Positions 18,328 to 36,099 of a DNA stretch of 64,000 nt are shown in pieces. The notes below the pieces were generated by a model that was not told the origin of the DNA, searched no databases, and saw only the letters and a list, made by a program, of their open reading frames with translations. Position numbers and translations under genes: made by a program. This DNA comes from an uncultured Clostridia bacterium (GTDB lineage Bacteria; Acidobacteriota; Aminicenantia; UBA2199): assembly GCA_964422395.1 (NCBI GenBank), contig CAYRAO010000007.1, forward strand, positions 11,491-75,490, in the 5' to 3' direction. The stretch's first letter is position 1. The number at the start of each line of letters is the position of its first letter.

Positions 18328-20169
18328 TCAATCAGACAATTTATTGTCACTATTTAACTTTTCTGCCAATTCCGAAGGGAGTTTTATTAGAGAATTTAGA
18401 TAAGATGAACTCTTTTTTCTCCAATATGACGTTTCATTGATAATTTTTTTTATCTTAATTAAAAAAACCTCTTTTTGTCCAAAGTAATGGAAATGTTTTT
18501 GGAGAAAGTACAATGCATTAATATACTTCGGTTCCAGTTTAATTGCTTCCAACGCTTTCTCTTTTGCTTGGGAATCCTTTTGAAATCTTATCAGCAATTC
18601 AGCCTTTTCCATCTTGATGAACGGATTGAACGGGTCAATATTCTCCAATTTATCCAACGGAGAGATAACCTCCTCAAGAAGTTTCGGATATTGAATACCT
18701 TTTTCCAAAAGGGATCGGAAAATATCGGATTCGAGAAAATAGGCTTCTTTATAATAAGGATTGATTTTTTCTGTTTTTTTTACGTTGTCTAAGGCAAAAT
18801 AGAAAAATTTCAGATCGGATGTTTTCTTAAATTGCCCAAGCAATATTGTTGCTTTCAAATAATACGGAGCGATATTCATATTATCAAATTTTTCCGCTCT
18901 GTTTAGAGAATTGAAAACTTTCACAACATCTTTCTCTTTTAAAGCTTTATTTACCAACAGATCTGAATAAAAAGGGAAGAAATATCCGACAGAAATTGTT
19001 ACGATCAGCATTGCTATCATTATGAATCGTATAAAACCGGAGTTACCGTAGAAATGTATTTTACCCTTAAAAAGGGTTTTTAGAACAAATATGAATAAAA
19101 AGAAAAAAAACGTTTGGAAAACAATAGTAAAAAAGAGAGATTGGAAAAGGAGATACAAAATAAGTATTTTGGAAAGATTAAAAATTGAGCCTTTAAATAC
19201 CCTTTTAAAAATAAAGAATAGAGAGAACAGGATAATAATAACCCCTAACATACCGAATTCCGAAATCAGTTGAACATAATCACTGTGAGGACTTTTAGGA
19301 ATCTTAAAATAATTTGCAGGTCCTTTTTTTTGTTTAAAATTATATTTCCTTGATAATTCTCTGAAATTATCCGCACCTACACCGGTCAACACATTATCCG
19401 AAAACATCTCATATCCGATTTTCCATATTTTAATCCTATCGGCGGAATACGGATCTTTATGTATTGAAAAATCAAACATATTTTTTATCGGATTCGGAAT
19501 AATAAATGTTAGTACAATTAGGAAAAGAACTATTGGGATTGCTCTTTTTTTTTTGCTAAGGACAAGTATTAATGAAAATATTGCGACACCGAGAAATGCA
19601 GCCTTTGACTCGGCCGAATATAGCAAAGCGGAATTAATAACGACAAGCGATAAATAATAATAATTTGTTTTTTTCAAAAAATTATAAAGAGAGATCAACA
19701 CTCCGACACCGGCAATAATTCCTACCCAGATAGTAGTGGAAAAGAAAAAGTCTTTAATCCCCGTAAGAAAGAGTATAATAAGAGAAACTATGGAAAATAT
19801 AGAAATTACTAATCCTATTATCCTAAAATACCTCTCCTCCTCACACTCTTCCGTAAGATAAAAGATAAAATAGAAAGAGATAAGAAATATGTCAAAAAAA
19901 AACAAAAATGATCTTACAAAATAAACTGAAAAAAAAATTGATATCAGAAGTATGGAATTTATTAACAATAATCCCTTTGAAAAATTTGAGACTCCTATGT
20001 TTTTTGTAATAATTATTCTACGAATTAGAAAAACGGTGATTAAAACGGCAAAAATTAAAAAATAGTAAAATGAAGATTTTTCCGGAAAAAAAACAAGAAA
20101 TATCAATATGGAAATAATTTCAACATCTTCATTCATGGATCTTAATTTAAAAAGAATATTCGAAAACAT
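18328..20169 (-). CDS. O-antigen ligase family (Wzy_C) membrane protein with C-terminal TPR region; candidate pilin O-oligosaccharyltransferase
   Basis: Polytopic N-terminal domain with the Wzy_C-like loop YSADRIKIWKIGYEMFSDNVLTGVGADNF, then a soluble TPR-like C-terminus. Start chosen at MFSNIL (20169), which abuts the upstream stop as TAGtATG. Confidence 0.7.
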   Translation of the reverse strand: MFSNILFKLRSMNEDVEIISILIFLVFFPEKSSFYYFLIFAVLITVFLIRRIIITKNIGVSNFSKGLLLINSILLISIFFSVYFVRSFLFFFDIFLISFYFIFYLTEECEEERYFRIIGLVISIFSIVSLIILFLTGIKDFFFSTTIWVGIIAGVGVLISLYNFLKKTNYYYLSLVVINSALLYSAESKAAFLGVAIFSLILVLSKKKRAIPIVLFLIVLTFIIPNPIKNMFDFSIHKDPYSADRIKIWKIGYEMFSDNVLTGVGADNFRELSRKYNFKQKKGPANYFKIPKSPHSDYVQLISEFGMLGVIIILFSLFFIFKRVFKGSIFNLSKILILYLLFQSLFFTIVFQTFFFFLFIFVLKTLFKGKIHFYGNSGFIRFIMIAMLIVTISVGYFFPFYSDLLVNKALKEKDVVKVFNSLNRAEKFDNMNIAPYYLKATILLGQFKKTSDLKFFYFALDNVKKTEKINPYYKEAYFLESDIFRSLLEKGIQYPKLLEEVISPLDKLENIDPFNPFIKMEKAELLIRFQKDSQAKEKALEAIKLEPKYINALYFLQKHFHYFGQKEVFLIKIKKIINETSYWRKKSSSYLNSLIKLPSELAEKLNSDNKLSD

Positions 20170-20170
20170 A

Positions 20171-21628
20171 CTATTTTTTCTCCGGTGACATATTCCCAAG
20201 ATTTTTATCAAGGTTTAATTTAAGAAAATCAAACCATTTTTTATATTCCCTATTTCTTATATTTAACGATTTTGCTCTTCCGGCATAATAAAAAGATGTC
20301 AGATATTTACCCTCCGAATACGATATTTTCGATTTCAAGAAATTTGCGTAAGGATTAAAATTGTTTAAAAGTAAAACTTTCCCTAAATATCTATCGGAAT
20401 TTTTTTTATCTCCCTTGGCATAATTTGTTGTTGCCAACCCCATAAGCGATTTATGGTTATACTTATTAAAATTCAGGCTTTTTTTAAAATATAACTCCGC
20501 TTTATCAAATCTTTTAAAATTCATATGAAATGATCCGGATTTTCTATTGCTTGAAGAAGTAAAAACAAGCAGTTGTATCAAAATGAATGAAACGGCTAAT
20601 ATGATATTAATTTTTGGTAGCGGATCGTTCTTCCTATAAATTTGAGATATTATCAAAGTAAAGATTAGGGACGCAGGAAAAAAATAGAAACCTATGTCAA
20701 TTAAATTGTACAATACCACTATCAGTAGAGCGGTAATATACAATGCATTTTCGTCATTAATTTGAAAATACAACTTTTTTCTGAATAAAAAAAGGAGTAG
20801 AATACCAATTATCAAGAAAAATATTCCGATTTCAGAAGTGATCTGGAGAATAAAATTGTGGGAATATATTGAGCGTGCCTCTCCGGGATAAGTAAAACCT
20901 GATATTTTTGATTCATAATTTCCCAAGCCGATTCCGAGAAGAGGACTCGTTTTTATTATCCTAACGGCTTGATTCCAATTGGATATCCTCAACCTGATCG
21001 GTTCTAAATTTTTAGCTTCGGAAAACCTTAATCCGATTATTATGAATAAGAATACCGATAGGATCATCATAAGCGGAACAAAAAATTTACTGTTGAATCT
21101 GCCGGAAAGAAAAAAGTACAATGGAAATCCTGTAAGTAAGTAGAGTATTCCGGAAAAAGACTGCGTTAAAATTATATTAAACATTCCTGTTGTAAACAGT
21201 ATTAACCAGAAGATTTTTATACTGTTTTTTTTTGAATTAATCAGGTAATGAAAAATTGCCAACAGTAAAATTGCACAAACAAATGTATACAAAGTAGGCA
21301 ATGAAAACACCGAGAAGATCCTCCCGCTTTTTACCCTCTCCACCATCGCCTCGGATACGGTGGAAATACCGGCATCCAAGTTATTTAGGTAAATAGGAAA
21401 CAGTAAATATTTTTGAATAATTCCGTACGTGAATATCAAAGATGAAGATAATACCGTAAGGATACGAATAATCCTTTTTAAATTAAAATATCTGAATACA
21501 AAAAAGAGAGATATAAATAAAGCAAAAAATATTGTTCTTTTGAAAAAATCTGTTTTTATATCACTTACGGAATAGTTAAATAGAATAAAAAACAGTGCTA
21601 CAAAAAAATAAAATGTTCTTTTTATCAA
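20171..21628 (-). CDS. O-antigen ligase family (Wzy_C) membrane protein with C-terminal TPR region; candidate pilin O-oligosaccharyltransferase
   Basis: 485 aa with multiple TM helices and the loop ISNWNQAVRIIKTSPLLGIGLGNYE. C-terminal TPR-like repeats (YFKKSLNFNKYNHKSLMGLATTNYAKGD...). Confidence 0.7.
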   Translation of the reverse strand: MIKRTFYFFVALFFILFNYSVSDIKTDFFKRTIFFALFISLFFVFRYFNLKRIIRILTVLSSSLIFTYGIIQKYLLFPIYLNNLDAGISTVSEAMVERVKSGRIFSVFSLPTLYTFVCAILLLAIFHYLINSKKNSIKIFWLILFTTGMFNIILTQSFSGILYLLTGFPLYFFLSGRFNSKFFVPLMMILSVFLFIIIGLRFSEAKNLEPIRLRISNWNQAVRIIKTSPLLGIGLGNYESKISGFTYPGEARSIYSHNFILQITSEIGIFFLIIGILLLFLFRKKLYFQINDENALYITALLIVVLYNLIDIGFYFFPASLIFTLIISQIYRKNDPLPKINIILAVSFILIQLLVFTSSSNRKSGSFHMNFKRFDKAELYFKKSLNFNKYNHKSLMGLATTNYAKGDKKNSDRYLGKVLLLNNFNPYANFLKSKISYSEGKYLTSFYYAGRAKSLNIRNREYKKWFDFLKLNLDKNLGNMSPEKK

Positions 21629-21652: not shown

Positions 21653-21686
21653 CAAAAAAAAACGGCTGATAAAATATCAGCCGTTT
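21653..21686 (-). terminator. Rho-independent terminator, bidirectional, downstream of the pilin gene
   Basis: Hairpin CGGCTGATA-aaa-TATCAGCCG at 21662-21682. It is flanked by A8 on one side and T4 on the other, so the minus-strand transcript reads stem-loop followed by TTTTTTTT. Confidence 0.7.
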
Positions 21687-21706
21687 TCATATTTAAATCA
21701 AATACT

Positions 21707-22153
21707 CTACTTAACTCTCGGACCCCAAACAAAAGAACCATTTTGAAAGACAATATCATTATTAAATCCAGCTAAACTAGTAACAACGTAGCTACCAACA
21801 CTTACAGGATCCGGTGTTCTATTTTTTCCGAAAGAATGAATGGTATATAACTCATCAGGACGTGATCTCAGGTAATTCCAAGTTCCGCCCCATCCGTCTT
21901 GTATTGGAAAATGCGGCATATAAAAATCTCTATGCCTACCGAATCCATCATCTTCAAGGGTAGTAGGTGCAATATAAAAATCTGTCATATATGCTGAACA
22001 TGCTGTTCCAATTGTTTTCATATCCGCCATAGTCGCTTTTTGCTTACCTTTTTGTATAGCCACAAGCAAATTGGGAATTGCTATAGCAGCTATAATACCG
22101 ATGATTGCAACAACAATCAAAAGTTCGATTAACGTAAAACCTTTTTTGTTCAT
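21707..22153 (-). CDS. pilA: Type IVa pilin (prepilin with N-terminal methylation motif)
   Basis: MNKKG|FTLIELLIVVAIIGIIAAIAIPNLL. The short leader ends in Gly, followed by Phe+1 and Glu+5. 148 aa. RBS AAGGAGG. Confidence 0.88.
   Translation of the reverse strand: MNKKGFTLIELLIVVAIIGIIAAIAIPNLLVAIQKGKQKATMADMKTIGTACSAYMTDFYIAPTTLEDDGFGRHRDFYMPHFPIQDGWGGTWNYLRSRPDELYTIHSFGKNRTPDPVSVGSYVVTSLAGFNNDIVFQNGSFVWGPRVK
22030..22153 (-). repeat. Pilin N-terminal coding repeat, copy 1 (~85% nt identity to 22610-22732)
   Basis: Direct comparison of the two pilin 5' regions shows long identical runs (GCCACAAGCAAATTGGGAATTGCTATAGC...). Confidence 0.8.
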
Positions 22154-22189
22154 AAGAACCTCCTTAAATTTTTTAGGTTACTTGATACA

Positions 22190-22205
22190 TGCAATAATCT
22201 TGCCA
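22190..22205 (-). promoter_or_regulatory. Sigma54 (RpoN) -24/-12 promoter for pilin 21707-22153
   Basis: The minus strand reads TGGCAAGATTATTGCA, with GG and GC exactly 10 nt apart, against the consensus TGGCACG-N4-TTGCW. It lies about 37 nt upstream of the ATG with the RBS in between. Confidence 0.6.
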
Positions 22206-22288
22206 CATTTGGTCTTTAATGATAGCGTTGAGTTTTGCAAGATACCGGATAAAATGCAACAAAGTGTCGTAATGAGTGACATAATTTG

Positions 22289-22732
22289 TCATTTTATGCT
22301 TGGACCATACGCAAGCAGTCCTCTGGAAAAAATAATATCCTTATTAAAATCTTGCAAAGAATTTACTATATATATACCCGATTGATCATATCCCCCAAAC
22401 ACATTGTCTTTTCCAGGAGAAACTATCGAATATAGTTGAGTCATTGAATTGTCTCTTGCATAAAGCCATGAATTTCCCCAGGCATCAACTTCAGGGAAAT
22501 TTTTAATGTAAAAATCTCCGTTATTTCCAAATGTCATATCCGACGGAGCCTGACAATTGTCCGTAACGTATATTTCAATGGATGTTGCAAGAGTTCTCAT
22601 ATCGGCTATAGTTGCTTTCTGCTTACTCTTTTGAATAGCCACAAGCAAATTGGGAATTGCTATAGCTGCAATTATACCGATTATGGCAACGACAATAAGT
22701 AATTCTATTAAAGTAAAACCCCTTTTGGTCAT
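22289..22732 (-). CDS. pilA: Type IVa pilin paralogue
   Basis: MTKRG|FTLIELLIVVAIIGIIAAIAIPNLLVAIQKSKQKATIADM. The first ~45 residues are near-identical to the downstream pilin; the C-terminal globular part is divergent. 147 aa. Confidence 0.88.
   Translation of the reverse strand: MTKRGFTLIELLIVVAIIGIIAAIAIPNLLVAIQKSKQKATIADMRTLATSIEIYVTDNCQAPSDMTFGNNGDFYIKNFPEVDAWGNSWLYARDNSMTQLYSIVSPGKDNVFGGYDQSGIYIVNSLQDFNKDIIFSRGLLAYGPSIK
22610..22732 (-). repeat. Pilin N-terminal coding repeat, copy 2
   Basis: See copy 1. Confidence 0.8.
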
Positions 22733-22768
22733 TGTAATCCTCCTTACACTCCTTCTTAAACATGTAAA

Positions 22769-22783
22769 GCAATTTAGATTCCA
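22769..22783 (-). promoter_or_regulatory. Weaker sigma54-like -24/-12 element for pilin 22289-22732
   Basis: The minus strand reads tTGGAATCTAAATTGCt with correct GG-N10-GC spacing, about 37 nt upstream of the ATG. This geometry matches the downstream pilin promoter. The dyad GATATTGAGAATATC at 22795-22809 lies just upstream. Confidence 0.4.
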
Positions 22784-22857
22784 ATTGATAAACCGATATT
22801 GAGAATATCAATATTTACTTTAATAAATGGAAATTTTGGATTTGATGATTCCGGTAA

Positions 22858-24213
22858 TTAGAAAAAATCTTCCGAAGAATCATAATTATGAAATTTTGTA
22901 AACTTATCTATAAATGCCAATTCAATCTTTCCCGTAGGACCGTTTCTTTGTTTGGCAATAATCAGATCGGCAATTCCTTTTCTCTCCGTATCTTTTTCAT
23001 TTTGCTCATCTCTATGGAGAAACATTATCACGTCTGCATCTTGTTCGATTGCACCGCTCTCTTTAAGGTCTGACAACTGATATTTGCGACTGCCTCTCTG
23101 TTCGGGAGACCTATTAAGCTGTGCCATGGCAACAACGGGAATTTGAAGTTCTTTTGCAAGTTCCTTAAGAGAAGCGGAAATTATTGAAACTTCCTGAGCT
23201 CTTGAATCACTTCTTCTAAGATTTTCACCTGTCACTTTCATTAGTTGGAGATAATCCACAAAAACGATATCCAATCCGCTCTCCCTCTGAAGACGTCTTG
23301 CTCTCGTTTTCATCTCAAGGACGGACAGAGTAGCAGAATCATCAATATAAATATTACTTTTTGAAATAGCTTCTGCTGCCAATTCCAATTTTTTCCACTC
23401 TTGCTTTGTAAGACTATATTTACCTCTTATAAGAGCACTCATGTTAACTTCAGCTTCGGTGGCAAGCAGTCTCAGCATGATCTGAAGTCTCGACATTTCA
23501 ATAGAAAAAAAACCTACCGATCTATTCTCTTTTATCGCAATATTTGAGGCAATATTCAACCCTAAAGCGGTTTTACCCATTGAAGGTCTTGCCGCAACAA
23601 TAATCAGATCACTTTGCTGAAATCCTCCGGTCATGTCATCAAGTTCATAAAAACCTGATTTTAGTCCCCCCGAATCTCCATGCTTTTGAATTTCTCTGAT
23701 CTTATTAATGGTTTGTGGAATAATTATTTTTGAAGATTTGAAGCCGTCATCAATCTCAGATCCGGCTATCTTGATTATATCATCTTGAAGCTTTGCAAGA
23801 ATTGATCTGACATCAGCTTTAGGTTCAATCCCTCTTGAAATCACATCGGAGGAGGTGGTAATTATCTTTCTAAGTACCGATTTCTCTTTTACAATGTTAA
23901 CATAATCTGAAATATCAAAATTTTCAGGAATACCGTCAGTGAGTGAATTAAGATATGTATAACCTCCGACAAACTTTAACTCGTCTTTTCCGAGATGCTC
24001 ACCGATTGTTAATGTATCCGCTTTTTTACCGGATTCATATACGTTGTATATACCGGCAGCTATGGTTTTATTTGAAGTACGGAAAAAATCGTCCGAATTT
24101 ATCTCGTTAAATACCAAATCAATATTTCTGTTATCAATCAACATTGCCCCCAAAACAGCTTTTTCCGCTAAATCGCTGTTAGGGAGCTTGGTCGATTCAG
24201 AAAAATTATTCAC
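22858..24213 (-). CDS. dnaB: Replicative DNA helicase
   Basis: 451 aa. N-terminal DnaB domain (AEKAVLGAMLID), Walker A in ARPSMGKTALGLNIA, and RecA-like C-terminal motifs. Confidence 0.93.
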   Translation of the reverse strand: MNNFSESTKLPNSDLAEKAVLGAMLIDNRNIDLVFNEINSDDFFRTSNKTIAAGIYNVYESGKKADTLTIGEHLGKDELKFVGGYTYLNSLTDGIPENFDISDYVNIVKEKSVLRKIITTSSDVISRGIEPKADVRSILAKLQDDIIKIAGSEIDDGFKSSKIIIPQTINKIREIQKHGDSGGLKSGFYELDDMTGGFQQSDLIIVAARPSMGKTALGLNIASNIAIKENRSVGFFSIEMSRLQIMLRLLATEAEVNMSALIRGKYSLTKQEWKKLELAAEAISKSNIYIDDSATLSVLEMKTRARRLQRESGLDIVFVDYLQLMKVTGENLRRSDSRAQEVSIISASLKELAKELQIPVVAMAQLNRSPEQRGSRKYQLSDLKESGAIEQDADVIMFLHRDEQNEKDTERKGIADLIIAKQRNGPTGKIELAFIDKFTKFHNYDSSEDFF

Positions 24214-33810: not shown

Positions 33811-36099
33811 ATGACAAACAGAGTTAAAAATATTGGTAATTCGGAATTCGGTCCAATGATGGACAATATTCCAGTAGGGCTTTACGAATCTACTCCGGAT
33901 GGGAAATTTCTAAAAATTAATACATTTATAATGGAAATGTTCGGTTTTTCCTCTAAGGAAGAAATGTTAAATTATGATATTTCCACCCTGTACCCGTCAA
34001 AAGAAGATAGAGACGAACTACTTCTAAAATACAAAAATGTCGATAAAATAAAGAACCATGAACTTAAACTAAAAAGAAAGGACGGGACACATTTCTGGGG
34101 ATCACTTACCGAAACTACAATAAAAAATAAAAATGGAAATATAATCTATTTTTTTGGAATTCTTGAAAATATAACGGAAAAGAAAGCAAAAGAAGAAGAA
34201 CTCATTAAATTGGTAACCCTTGTGGAGCAAGCAGCAATATCAATCATACTAACCGATACAAAAGGGTCTATTCAGTATGTAAATCCATGGTTCGAAAAAA
34301 CTTCCGGATATAAAGCTGATAAAATAAAAGGGGAAAATCCAAGAATTTTGAAATCTAAAAATGCCTTATATCCTCCCAGTTATTTTAAATCTTTATGGGA
34401 ATCAATAAATAATAGAGAGATTTGGCGTGGACAATTTACAAACAGGAAAAAATCTGGAGAAGATTTTATTGAAGATGCCACGATTTTCCCAATTATTTCC
34501 AAAAACAATAAAGAATTATTGGGCTTTGGAGCAGTACAAAAAGATATTACAAGACAGATCGAACTCGAAAGAGAATTGGAACACTCACTTAGAGAGATGG
34601 AAACACTGAAAGTAAAAGCTGAATCATCATCAAAACTAAAATCAATTTTTTTGGCAAATATGTCTCACGATATAAGGACACCCTTGAATGCTATCATAGG
34701 TTTTGCAAATCTTCTTAGGGAAAACAGACTCAATACCAAACTCAACAAATATGTAGAAAATATTATTAAATCCGGAAATGTACTTTTAAATTTGATTAAT
34801 GATATCCTTGATCTCTCAAAAATAGAAGCAGGTCAGATGAGTATTGCTCAAAATACTTTTTTTCTAAATGAGTTAATCGATAACCTCAAATCTATTTTCA
34901 ACTCTCAATTCAATAAAAAAAATATTATTTTTAGAATTAAAAAAGGATCAAATCTTCCCGAAAAAATTTTTAGCGATCAATCCCGTGTCCAACAAATTTT
35001 GATAAATCTGTTGTCTAATGCTCTGAAATTCACACGGGAGGGGGAAGTTACTTTAAAAATAAGTCATGACAAACAGAATGATCTTTTAAAATTTTTCGTA
35101 ACAGATACAGGAATAGGCATTCCTGAAGAGTCTCAGGATAAATTATTTTTCCCTTTTTATTCAAACAAATCTCTTGATAATATTGATGAATCGGGCACGG
35201 GATTGGGTCTTACCATTTGTAAAAACTTGTCCGAACTTTTAAACGGCAATATTAAAATGAGATCAAAGTTAGGAGAAGGATCCGAATTTATCTTTGAACT
35301 ACCCGCAAATTCGTCTGAGGTAGAGGATATTTTACAACTTAAAGAGAGCAATTTCATAATTAATAATGAAGAAATCATTGAACATGCTAACAAAAAAATT
35401 CTAATTGCCGAAGACAATCCGGCAAATGCAGAACTACTATATGAATTTCTTGAACTTAAAGGATTTAAAAATATACACATTGTAAATGATGGTGAAAAAG
35501 CGATAAAAATGGCTTTAAAGCAGTTACCGCAATTGATAATTATGGATAATAAGATGCCAAAAAAATCAGGATTTAAAGCATTAAAGATTTTAAGGGAGAA
35601 AGGATTTGAAAACCCGATAATAATTCTCACTGCTGATGCTATTGAAGAAATACAAAAAGATGAAATTAATATTATGCCTGAAAGTTACCTCACAAAACCG
35701 ATTAATTTTGAATTTTTATTTGAGGAAATCTGCCGTCTTTTAAAATGTGATGATACGACGCGGACAAAAAATATAATCGGAAATAATGGAGCGAAATTTA
35801 TAATTAACAAAAATATTTCAACAAAAGTCAAAAATATTTTTTTAAAAGACCTAAAAGAGAAACAAATATTTATCAATAAAGTGATTAAAAAGAAAAACAT
35901 TAAAAATAAGTTGGATGAAATCTCAATTATTGCACATACTTATAAAGGAAATGCCGGATATTTCGGTCTTAAACCTTTTGAATTACTGGCAAAAGAACTT
36001 GATCGAAAATTAAAGGACAATGCTTCCGAAAAATCCATATTAAATACGACGATTGCTTTAAATGATATGATAAGCAGTATTATTGCATCAAACAAATAA
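33811..36099 (+). CDS. Cytoplasmic hybrid sensor histidine kinase: PAS-PAS-HisKA-HATPase_c-REC-Hpt
   Basis: Two PAS blocks. H-box MSHDIRTPLNAIIGF. HATPase GTGLGLTICKNL. REC with D in LIIMDNKMP and K in LTKP. C-terminal Hpt motif AHTYKGNAGYFG. No TM segment. Confidence 0.88.
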   Translation: MTNRVKNIGNSEFGPMMDNIPVGLYESTPDGKFLKINTFIMEMFGFSSKEEMLNYDISTLYPSKEDRDELLLKYKNVDKIKNHELKLKRKDGTHFWGSLTETTIKNKNGNIIYFFGILENITEKKAKEEELIKLVTLVEQAAISIILTDTKGSIQYVNPWFEKTSGYKADKIKGENPRILKSKNALYPPSYFKSLWESINNREIWRGQFTNRKKSGEDFIEDATIFPIISKNNKELLGFGAVQKDITRQIELERELEHSLREMETLKVKAESSSKLKSIFLANMSHDIRTPLNAIIGFANLLRENRLNTKLNKYVENIIKSGNVLLNLINDILDLSKIEAGQMSIAQNTFFLNELIDNLKSIFNSQFNKKNIIFRIKKGSNLPEKIFSDQSRVQQILINLLSNALKFTREGEVTLKISHDKQNDLLKFFVTDTGIGIPEESQDKLFFPFYSNKSLDNIDESGTGLGLTICKNLSELLNGNIKMRSKLGEGSEFIFELPANSSEVEDILQLKESNFIINNEEIIEHANKKILIAEDNPANAELLYEFLELKGFKNIHIVNDGEKAIKMALKQLPQLIIMDNKMPKKSGFKALKILREKGFENPIIILTADAIEEIQKDEINIMPESYLTKPINFEFLFEEICRLLKCDDTTRTKNIIGNNGAKFIINKNISTKVKNIFLKDLKEKQIFINKVIKKKNIKNKLDEISIIAHTYKGNAGYFGLKPFELLAKELDRKLKDNASEKSILNTTIALNDMISSIIASNK

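Follow-up and report, generated by a model that had tools for sequence, protein, structure and literature searches.

Control of pilin genes by PilR and the sigma factor RpoN (sigma-54) is textbook knowledge in Pseudomonas, Myxococcus, and Geobacter. Thermus thermophilus makes two pilins, PilA4 and PilA5, that build two different filaments, and in Pseudomonas 1244 and Acinetobacter the pilin O-oligosaccharyltransferases of the Wzy_C family (TfpO, PilO, PglL) are encoded beside pilA. PilR/RpoN control of pilA has been established in Geobacter and Pseudomonas (PMC2725144, PMC6058289), and the hallmarks of a PilR binding site in P. aeruginosa are a NifA-like TGT-N11-AGA sequence and GTCT elements (PMC6058289). 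In the literature on pilin regulation in Aminicenantes or Acidobacteria, we found nothing specific. Here, we describe two tandem pilin genes, A and B, in a 64,000-nucleotide stretch of contig CAYRAO010000007.1 (hereafter, the window), which has a G+C content of 33% and whose proteins find their nearest named genome matches in metagenome-assembled genomes (MAGs) of Candidatus Aminicenantes and Acidobacteriota. Proteins identical to those of the window turned up in a single ENA metagenome assembly and its counterparts at NCBI/JGI, and nowhere else. In the reading that we favor, with a probability of roughly 75%, A and B would be an anciently duplicated pair of GspG-like pilins, each behind its own RpoN promoter, and B would also carry a two-site activator sequence of the PilR type.

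Both genes lie on the minus strand and both products match Pfam N_methyl; the initial annotation of this DNA, made from the sequence alone, was right to call them tandem pilin paralogues. Gene A (22732..22289) is an open reading frame (ORF) of 147 aa that begins with the class III signal peptide MTKRG/FTLIELL and continues into a GspG-like globular domain; its paralogue, gene B (22153..21707), encodes 148 aa and begins MNKKG/FTLIELL. The entire neighborhood is common to five related genomes (six loci: L083, L084, L086/L087, L088, and L089, where L086 and L087 are two records of a single genome), and the DnaB proteins encoded in these syntenic relatives are 86-91% identical to that of the window. 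We found orthologues of A in L083, L084, L086, L088, and L089, and B-type orthologues are kept in every syntenic locus. Conservation upstream of B was followed in an alignment of nine genomes, A3, comprising the window, L083, L084, L086, L088, L089, L003, L004, and L005.

Promoter elements and activator sites

Each pilin gene is preceded by a -24/-12 element in which the GG and GC lie one helical turn apart, following TGG-N9-TGC or, more fully, TGGCACG-N4-TTGCW. The element of A, TGGAATCTAAATTGC, spans -26 to -12 and occupies 22783..22769 on the minus strand; that of B, TGGCAAGATTATTGCA, lies at 22190..22205, also on the minus strand, and is read as TGGCAAGATTATTGC over 22205..22191. Within the pattern TGG-N8-TTGC, the T of TGG stands 51 nt before the ATG in A and 52 nt before it in B. 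This bears out the claim of the initial annotation that the two elements sit at matching distances from their start codons, and the elements are conserved in all orthologous loci examined. Transcription is predicted to start at ~22757 for A and ~22179 for B, giving 5' untranslated regions of ~25 and ~26 nt, each with a GGAGG ribosome-binding site.

Judged from the window by itself, the case for these elements is mixed, with A at chance level by consensus (see below). TGG-N8-TTGC occurs at just four sites in its 128 kb (both strands), and the A and B elements are two of them. The B element has a single mismatch to TGGCACG-N4-TTGCW and is the sole such site in the window, where 0.16 would be expected. 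We also ran the RpoN position weight matrix (PWM) scan that had been suggested at the outset, building the matrix from 15 sites taken from other genomes only; of all window positions, the A element ranks first, at 23.1 bits, and the B element second, at 14.6 bits, with the best unrelated position at 12.5 bits. Sigma-70-like hexamer pairs are found about as often as expected (9 against 8.6), and none of them is well placed or conserved.

It is the comparison with other genomes that decides in their favor. TGG-N9-TGC precedes every pilin gene of the syntenic loci: it begins 48-52 nt ahead of the start codon in genes of the A and B types and 38 nt ahead in a third pilin gene (see below). In many pilin genes of more distant Acidobacteriota, it is found at 44-56 nt. 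Upstream of B in alignment A3, the TGG and TGC columns are invariant and the bases between and around them vary. The A-type element, either identical or of the TGGAA type, is found in the same place in L083, L084, L086, L088, L089, and L004. Its -24 had been described as the weaker of the two, and it is: TGGAA replaces TGGCA. It is conserved all the same, with A orthologues reading TGGAATC, TGGAAAA, or TGGAACA, and L004 has a TGGAA-type element with the activator motif TGACA-N5-TGTCA 90 bp upstream of it. Given that the TGGAA -24 is kept among A orthologues and paired with the activator motif in L004, it appears to be a maintained variant rather than a product of decay. Judged on these sequence comparisons, both elements are very probably real sigma-54 promoters.

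Upstream of promoter B lie two candidate activator sites. Site 1 is the perfect dyad TGACAAATTATGTCA (22277..22291), a TGACA-N5-TGTCA sequence that overlaps the TGA stop codon of A; it is the sole match to this motif in the window. Site 2, the degenerate copy CGACACTTTGTTGCA (22255..22269), begins exactly 22 bp after site 1. The center of site 1 is ~105 bp upstream of the predicted B start and site 2 is at about -83. Sites for enhancer-binding proteins are sought as dyads ~80-150 bp upstream of the -24/-12 element, as a rule in pairs that share a helical face, and the two sites of B fit this pattern. In all nine genomes of A3, the TGACA and TGTC of site 1 are invariant and the (T/C)GAC half-site of site 2 keeps a constant 22-bp offset, about two helical turns. 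Across the 908 kb of loci that we fetched, 13 of 17 exact matches to TGACA-N5-TGTCA sit 80-114 bp upstream of a TGG-N9-TGC on the same strand. We also considered whether site 1 might terminate transcription of A, and decided against it: it folds only weakly (-7 kcal/mol, z = -2.1) and lacks a U-run downstream.

The initial annotation had placed each gene behind its own palindromic upstream element, and this description survives for B, whose dyad lies where it had been reported and is conserved in nine genomes. For A, it does not. The second dyad, GATATTGAGAATATC (22795..22809), is present ~45 bp upstream of the predicted A start, but none of the orthologous loci has it. The window contains a perfect palindrome (6-nt arms, spacer of 0-8 nt) every 190 bp or so, and the 125-bp spacer between dnaB and A would thus be expected to hold ~0.66 of them. 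We therefore rejected this dyad, which is nonconserved and expected by chance, as an activator site; it is probably not functional.

Three relatives connect the motif to regulatory genes. In L012 (Candidatus Aminicenantaceae), L042 (Acidobacteriota), and L061, we find the order pilC, histidine kinase, a gene for a REC plus Sigma54_activat protein, TGACA-N5-TGTCA motif, -24/-12 element, and pilin gene. The kinase of L012 has a 6TM_PilS domain, and an HTH_8 domain was detected in the regulators of L042 and L061. The motif is thus found beside a pilR-type gene in these three relatives and not in the genome of the window. Because it precedes pilin genes that immediately follow genes of the pilS/pilR type in all three, TGACA-N5-TGTCA is probably the PilR box of this phylum.

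Several observations weigh against this reading. With three mismatches to the generic RpoN consensus, the A element belongs to a class of which 32 are found and 33.6 expected, which is chance level on consensus alone; the support for promoter A therefore comes from its position and conservation. Upstream of gene A, no conserved or recognizable activator site emerged when the orthologous loci were compared. The motif itself is unlike the PilR-site hallmarks of P. aeruginosa (PMC6058289), and the name PilR for the activator rests on gene neighborhood in the relatives. No rpoN or activator gene turned up in the 64-kb window when its six-frame translation was searched for GAFTGA, ESELFGH, and the RpoN box; up to 10 kb past both window ends, we found only polysaccharide and housekeeping genes and no rpoN or activator gene. 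With the PilR of L012 as a query, no homologue was assigned to this genome among the best 120 matches. Sigma-54 activators are abundant in Aminicenantes. On balance, the sigma-54/PilR reading is well supported for B, where the comparison supplies both the conserved dyad and the pilR-linked motif of the relatives, and the promoter of A is reasonably supported; PilR-like control of both pilins, as first proposed, thus holds up for B and lacks an activator site for A.

The following mechanism would account for these features. Both promoters would be occupied by RpoN-holoenzyme in the closed-complex state. The activator would be a phosphorylated response regulator of the PilR type, whose gene presumably lies in another part of the genome; from the paired TGACA-N5-TGTCA sites, it would reach the holoenzyme at promoter B through a DNA loop and drive promoter opening with ATP. 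B would fire from the stronger, TGGCA-type -24, and the weaker but conserved TGGAA-type -24 of A would presumably set another level of expression. Activation of A might come from the B sites, ~500 bp downstream, or from some other site. Transcription would then stop at a strong terminator after B.

This intrinsic terminator (21654..21688, minus strand) has a perfectly paired stem of 13 bp, capped by a 3-nt loop and followed by nine U; the stem corresponds to inverted repeat I3, which is 100% complementary. The fold has a stability of -19.1 kcal/mol (z = -6.6), and none of 200 shuffled sequences was as stable. It was revealed by direct folding; an automated terminator scan gave no match. Searches of Rfam returned sub-threshold matches only, all of them on this hairpin. 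There is no comparable fold between A and B, nor between dnaB and A (z = -0.65 for the latter spacer). Since no terminator separates dnaB from A or A from B, transcription may run on from upstream into A, and likewise from A into B.

GspG-like pilin subunits

The N-terminal part of both proteins is that of the type IV pilin superfamily. The leaders are five residues long, basic, and end in Gly (MTKRG/FTLIELLIVVAIIG and MNKKG/FTLIELLIVVAIIG); Phe at +1, Glu at +5, and a hydrophobic N-terminal helix follow, and both proteins match Pfam N_methyl (E-values of 1.6e-08 for A and 1.7e-09 for B) and TIGR02532. In a PDB profile search with the pilin family, the N-terminal helix matches the PilA proteins of Geobacter and Myxococcus and the globular part matches PulG/EpsG/GspG. 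For Pfam T2SSG, with a cutoff of 21 bits, A passes at 31.5 and B falls marginally under at 20.5. An AlphaFold2 model of A built from 120 homologues reached a mean predicted local distance difference test (pLDDT) score of 86.6, with a helix over residues 8-59. Searched against the PDB, the 120-sequence model matches the Vibrio pseudopilin EpsG (3gn9) first and the Thermus type IV pilin PilA4 second.

There is exactly one Cys in each protein, in DNCQAP in A and TACSAY in B, as the initial annotation had said in arguing that there is no disulfide loop. Orthologues keep neither residue, and Cys is missing from the family consensus; the disulfide-bonded C-terminal D-region of classical type IVa major pilins (PilA/PilE) is accordingly not found in A or B. 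Of the earlier label, type IVa pilin, the superfamily signal peptide stands, and the rest gives way to a head that is GspG/T2SSG-like by Pfam, PDB profile, and predicted fold. Because of this head and the single nonconserved Cys, we predict, on sequence and model, that A and B are GspG-headed subunits within the type IV pilin superfamily and do not belong to the classical, disulfide-bonded type IVa pilins. The label 'GspG-like type IV pilin family' should suit them better.

The GspG-like head also raises the possibility that the genes encode the major pseudopilins (GspG) of type II secretion, in which case the regulation described above would be that of a secretion system. The T2SSG match, the EpsG fold, the PulG/EpsG/GspG profile match, and the missing disulfide loop all fit such a role, and GspG (TIGR01710) is the top NCBIfam match of both proteins. 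The scores, however, are 67.2 bits for A and 54.8 for B, under the curated equivalog cutoff of 88.85. There is also no gspC-M operon nearby, and no type II secretion E, F, or D genes were seen among the window ORFs scanned. Also set against a secretion role are the two or three genes in tandem, every one with a promoter to itself, and the activator site held in common with pilins that adjoin pilT-pilC-pilS-pilR in relatives; the second fold match to Thermus PilA4 and the closeness of the N-terminal helix to Geobacter and Myxococcus PilA likewise point elsewhere. We consider the secretion reading unlikely, though the best placed of the alternatives. As for the filament that A and B would build, the operator shared with pilSR-linked pilins favors a type IV pilus, and the GspG-like head leaves a pseudopilus possible.

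Promoter A and the divergence of the two genes

A second alternative accepts sigma-54 control of B and denies it to A; the element upstream of A would have little activity or none, and the gene would be read mainly from the S6-S18-L9-dnaB operon or from an unrecognized promoter. The three consensus mismatches of promoter A and the lack of a conserved activator site before it favor this view, as does the open path from dnaB into A, where no terminator-like fold intervenes. Against it, all orthologues have TGGAA-N-TTGC, equally far from the start codon, in a spacer that is otherwise not conserved. In L083, the element is retained in a spacer only ~60 nt long, with only ~14 nt upstream of the promoter. 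The L004 arrangement, where this variant accompanies an activator motif, indicates that the TGGAA type is used with an activator. We therefore regard an inactive promoter A as improbable, a little more so than a secretion role.

The initial annotation had further suggested that the conserved 5' region could allow recombinational switching between the genes. In such a scheme, recombination within the shared 5' third would exchange their C-terminal domains, as in pilin switching or antigenic variation. The shared region is real. A 150-nt direct repeat (22004-22153 and 22583-22732) is 83% identical, as are the first 47 codons, close to the ~85% first estimated, and the two proteins are 56% identical overall. 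The repeat includes a 32-nt identical tract at gene nt 67-98 (22635-22666 in A, 22056-22087 in B), compared with 8-17 nt in the A/B pairs of the other five genomes. Val31 is common to A and B of the window, where the closest B orthologue (L083) and other relatives have Thr. A short past gene conversion at the 32-nt tract is possible.

The remaining evidence argues against switching. In more than 100 family members, the N-terminal 45-50 residues hardly vary, so that high 5' nucleotide identity is expected from purifying selection on the protein sequence. Identity at third codon positions is 0.62 between A and B of the window, only slightly over the 0.36-0.53 of between-genome A-versus-B comparisons; within-genome A/B pairs in the five other genomes give 0.38-0.51. 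The window value equals that of some orthologue pairs, and the synonymous sites of the shared 5' part are largely diverged. A and B fall in separate orthologue groups, and because each groups with its own orthologues, the duplication predates these genomes; as judged from these groupings, it is ancient. We found none of the features of recombinational variation that we looked for, namely promoterless silent cassettes, long identical tracts, or recent exchange: both genes are complete with promoter and ribosome-binding site, and they share no identical run of more than 32 nt. Crossing over between direct repeats would, moreover, delete the intervening DNA rather than switch it. Recombinational switching is thus unlikely, and we give it very little weight. 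The two conserved promoter variants suggest a pair of subunits that differ in function and in level of expression, and not two versions of a single subunit.

Least probable of all is that the -24/-12 look-alikes and the dyad arose by chance in AT-rich intergenic DNA and that sigma-70 promoters are used: generic consensus matches at ≤3 mismatches are at chance level in the window, and a single TGACA-N5-TGTCA match at ≤1 mismatch is within chance for the window alone, but both promoter elements and the two activator sites keep their spacing and position in at least nine genomes whose flanks diverge, an independent PWM ranks the elements first and second, and there is no conserved -35/-10 pair.

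Neighboring genes and known systems

On the minus strand, the genes run in the order L25-S6-S18-L9, dnaB (24213..22858), A, B, a Wzy_C/TPR membrane protein (21628..20171), a second Wzy_C protein (20211..18328), and an EamA-like transporter; a gene for a class A penicillin-binding protein follows the EamA-like gene on the opposite, plus strand. The ribosomal proteins S6 (218 aa), L9, and L25 (24206-26379, minus strand) have long, highly charged C-terminal extensions rich in Lys and Glu, and the S6 genes of relatives are extended as well, encoding 202-281 aa. Two relatives carry a third pilin gene upstream of A (7333-7905 in L084, 7346-7933 in L086) that is not in the window. It encodes 190-195 aa, ending in a long, acidic, lysine-rich C-terminal tail, and has its own TGG-N9-TGC at the distance given above. 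The heptamer CCGGAAT (22848-22854 in the window) recurs upstream of the A promoter in the window, L084, and L089, at 71, 37, and 36 nt before the TGG, respectively; this may be chance.

The Wzy_C/TPR pair (18328-21628, minus strand) directly follows the pilin genes in L083-L089, L003, L004, and L005 as well, and tblastn searches showed that the linkage of pilin and Wzy_C genes persists in genomes without the dnaB neighborhood. With their longest TTG starts, the two ORFs overlap by 41 nt (20171-20211); in L083, the genes abut without overlap, and the true start of the second gene is probably further downstream. Searches of PDB sequences showed no specific similarity of these proteins to characterized O-oligosaccharyltransferases, returning TPR matches and one weak match to WaaL. 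The pair may be a pilin O-glycosylation module or a filament-associated one.

Further away, a large polysaccharide biosynthesis cluster extends from 36335 to 63986 and beyond (L090). It includes two further Wzy_C proteins, a flippase, a sugar transferase, glycosyltransferases, methyltransferases, and two domain-less proteins of 660-670 aa. The sole signaling protein among the window ORFs scanned is a hybrid histidine kinase of the arrangement PAS-PAS-HisKA-HATPase-REC (33811-36099, plus strand), which is not a sigma-54 activator.

These observations can be combined into a broader and more tentative proposal, one that we hold at well under even odds. The paired TGACA-N5-TGTCA sites, 22 bp apart and ~85-110 bp upstream of the -24, would be the PilR operator of Aminicenantes/Acidobacteriota; its regulon would include the GspG-like pilins together with the two Wzy_C/TPR proteins, which would make up an undescribed, conserved and stand-alone module with a pilin-modifying or filament-associated role; and one site would act as an enhancer both for B, 86 bp upstream, and for A, ~500 bp downstream. 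The principle of PilR/RpoN control is already known and will not surprise the specialist. What the locus adds is a comparatively supported, sequence-level picture of pilin regulation in an uncultured and poorly studied lineage (Aminicenantes/Acidobacteriota). The gains are better annotation, a testable operator motif, and a conserved module of pilins and Wzy_C/TPR proteins; the candidate PilR operator could serve for regulon prediction in MAGs.

How, then, does this locus compare with the systems described elsewhere? As with TfpO, PilO, and PglL, two Wzy_C membrane proteins are encoded directly after the pilins and the linkage is conserved. Unlike those enzymes, the Wzy_C proteins here have C-terminal TPR regions and match only WaaL, weakly, and the pilins end in Lys, in contrast to the C-terminal Ser used by TfpO. 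Neisseria pilE/pilS resembles the pair in having pilin copies with a conserved 5' part and divergent 3' parts; A and B differ in being full-length genes with promoters and ribosome-binding sites, in their ancient orthologous divergence, and in sharing an identical tract of only 32 nt. The likeness to Thermus PilA4/PilA5 is that of two small pilins kept side by side over long evolutionary time, with PilA4 as the second-best fold match; for A and B, two filament types would be conjecture, and the sequence similarity is mostly confined to the N-terminal helix.

The GspG proteins EpsG and PulG share more with A and B: the short leader, the G/FTLIE junction, a T2SSG-type domain with the D-x-WG-x-x-W/Y motif, the lack of a disulfide, and, for EpsG (3gn9), the top fold match. 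In contrast to GspG, A and B score below the equivalog threshold, lie outside a gsp operon as a tandem duplicate with sigma-54 promoters, and are linked to the two Wzy_C/TPR proteins.

The regulatory layout is closest to PilS-PilR/RpoN-pilA of P. aeruginosa, G. sulfurreducens, and M. xanthus. There are differences: the pilins here are downstream of dnaB, away from any pilS/pilR, and comprise two genes with two promoters; their globular domain is GspG-like; and the box is TGACA-N5-TGTCA, compared with the TGT-N11-AGA and GTCT of P. aeruginosa PilR sites (PMC6058289). The common ground is a -24/-12 element a few tens of nucleotides upstream of a prepilin gene, with activator sites, here, ~80-105 bp upstream. 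As in the Geobacter pilR-pilA region (PMC2725144), the relatives L012, L042, and L061 encode, in order, PilC, a kinase, a REC-AAA+-HTH_8 activator, and the pilin.

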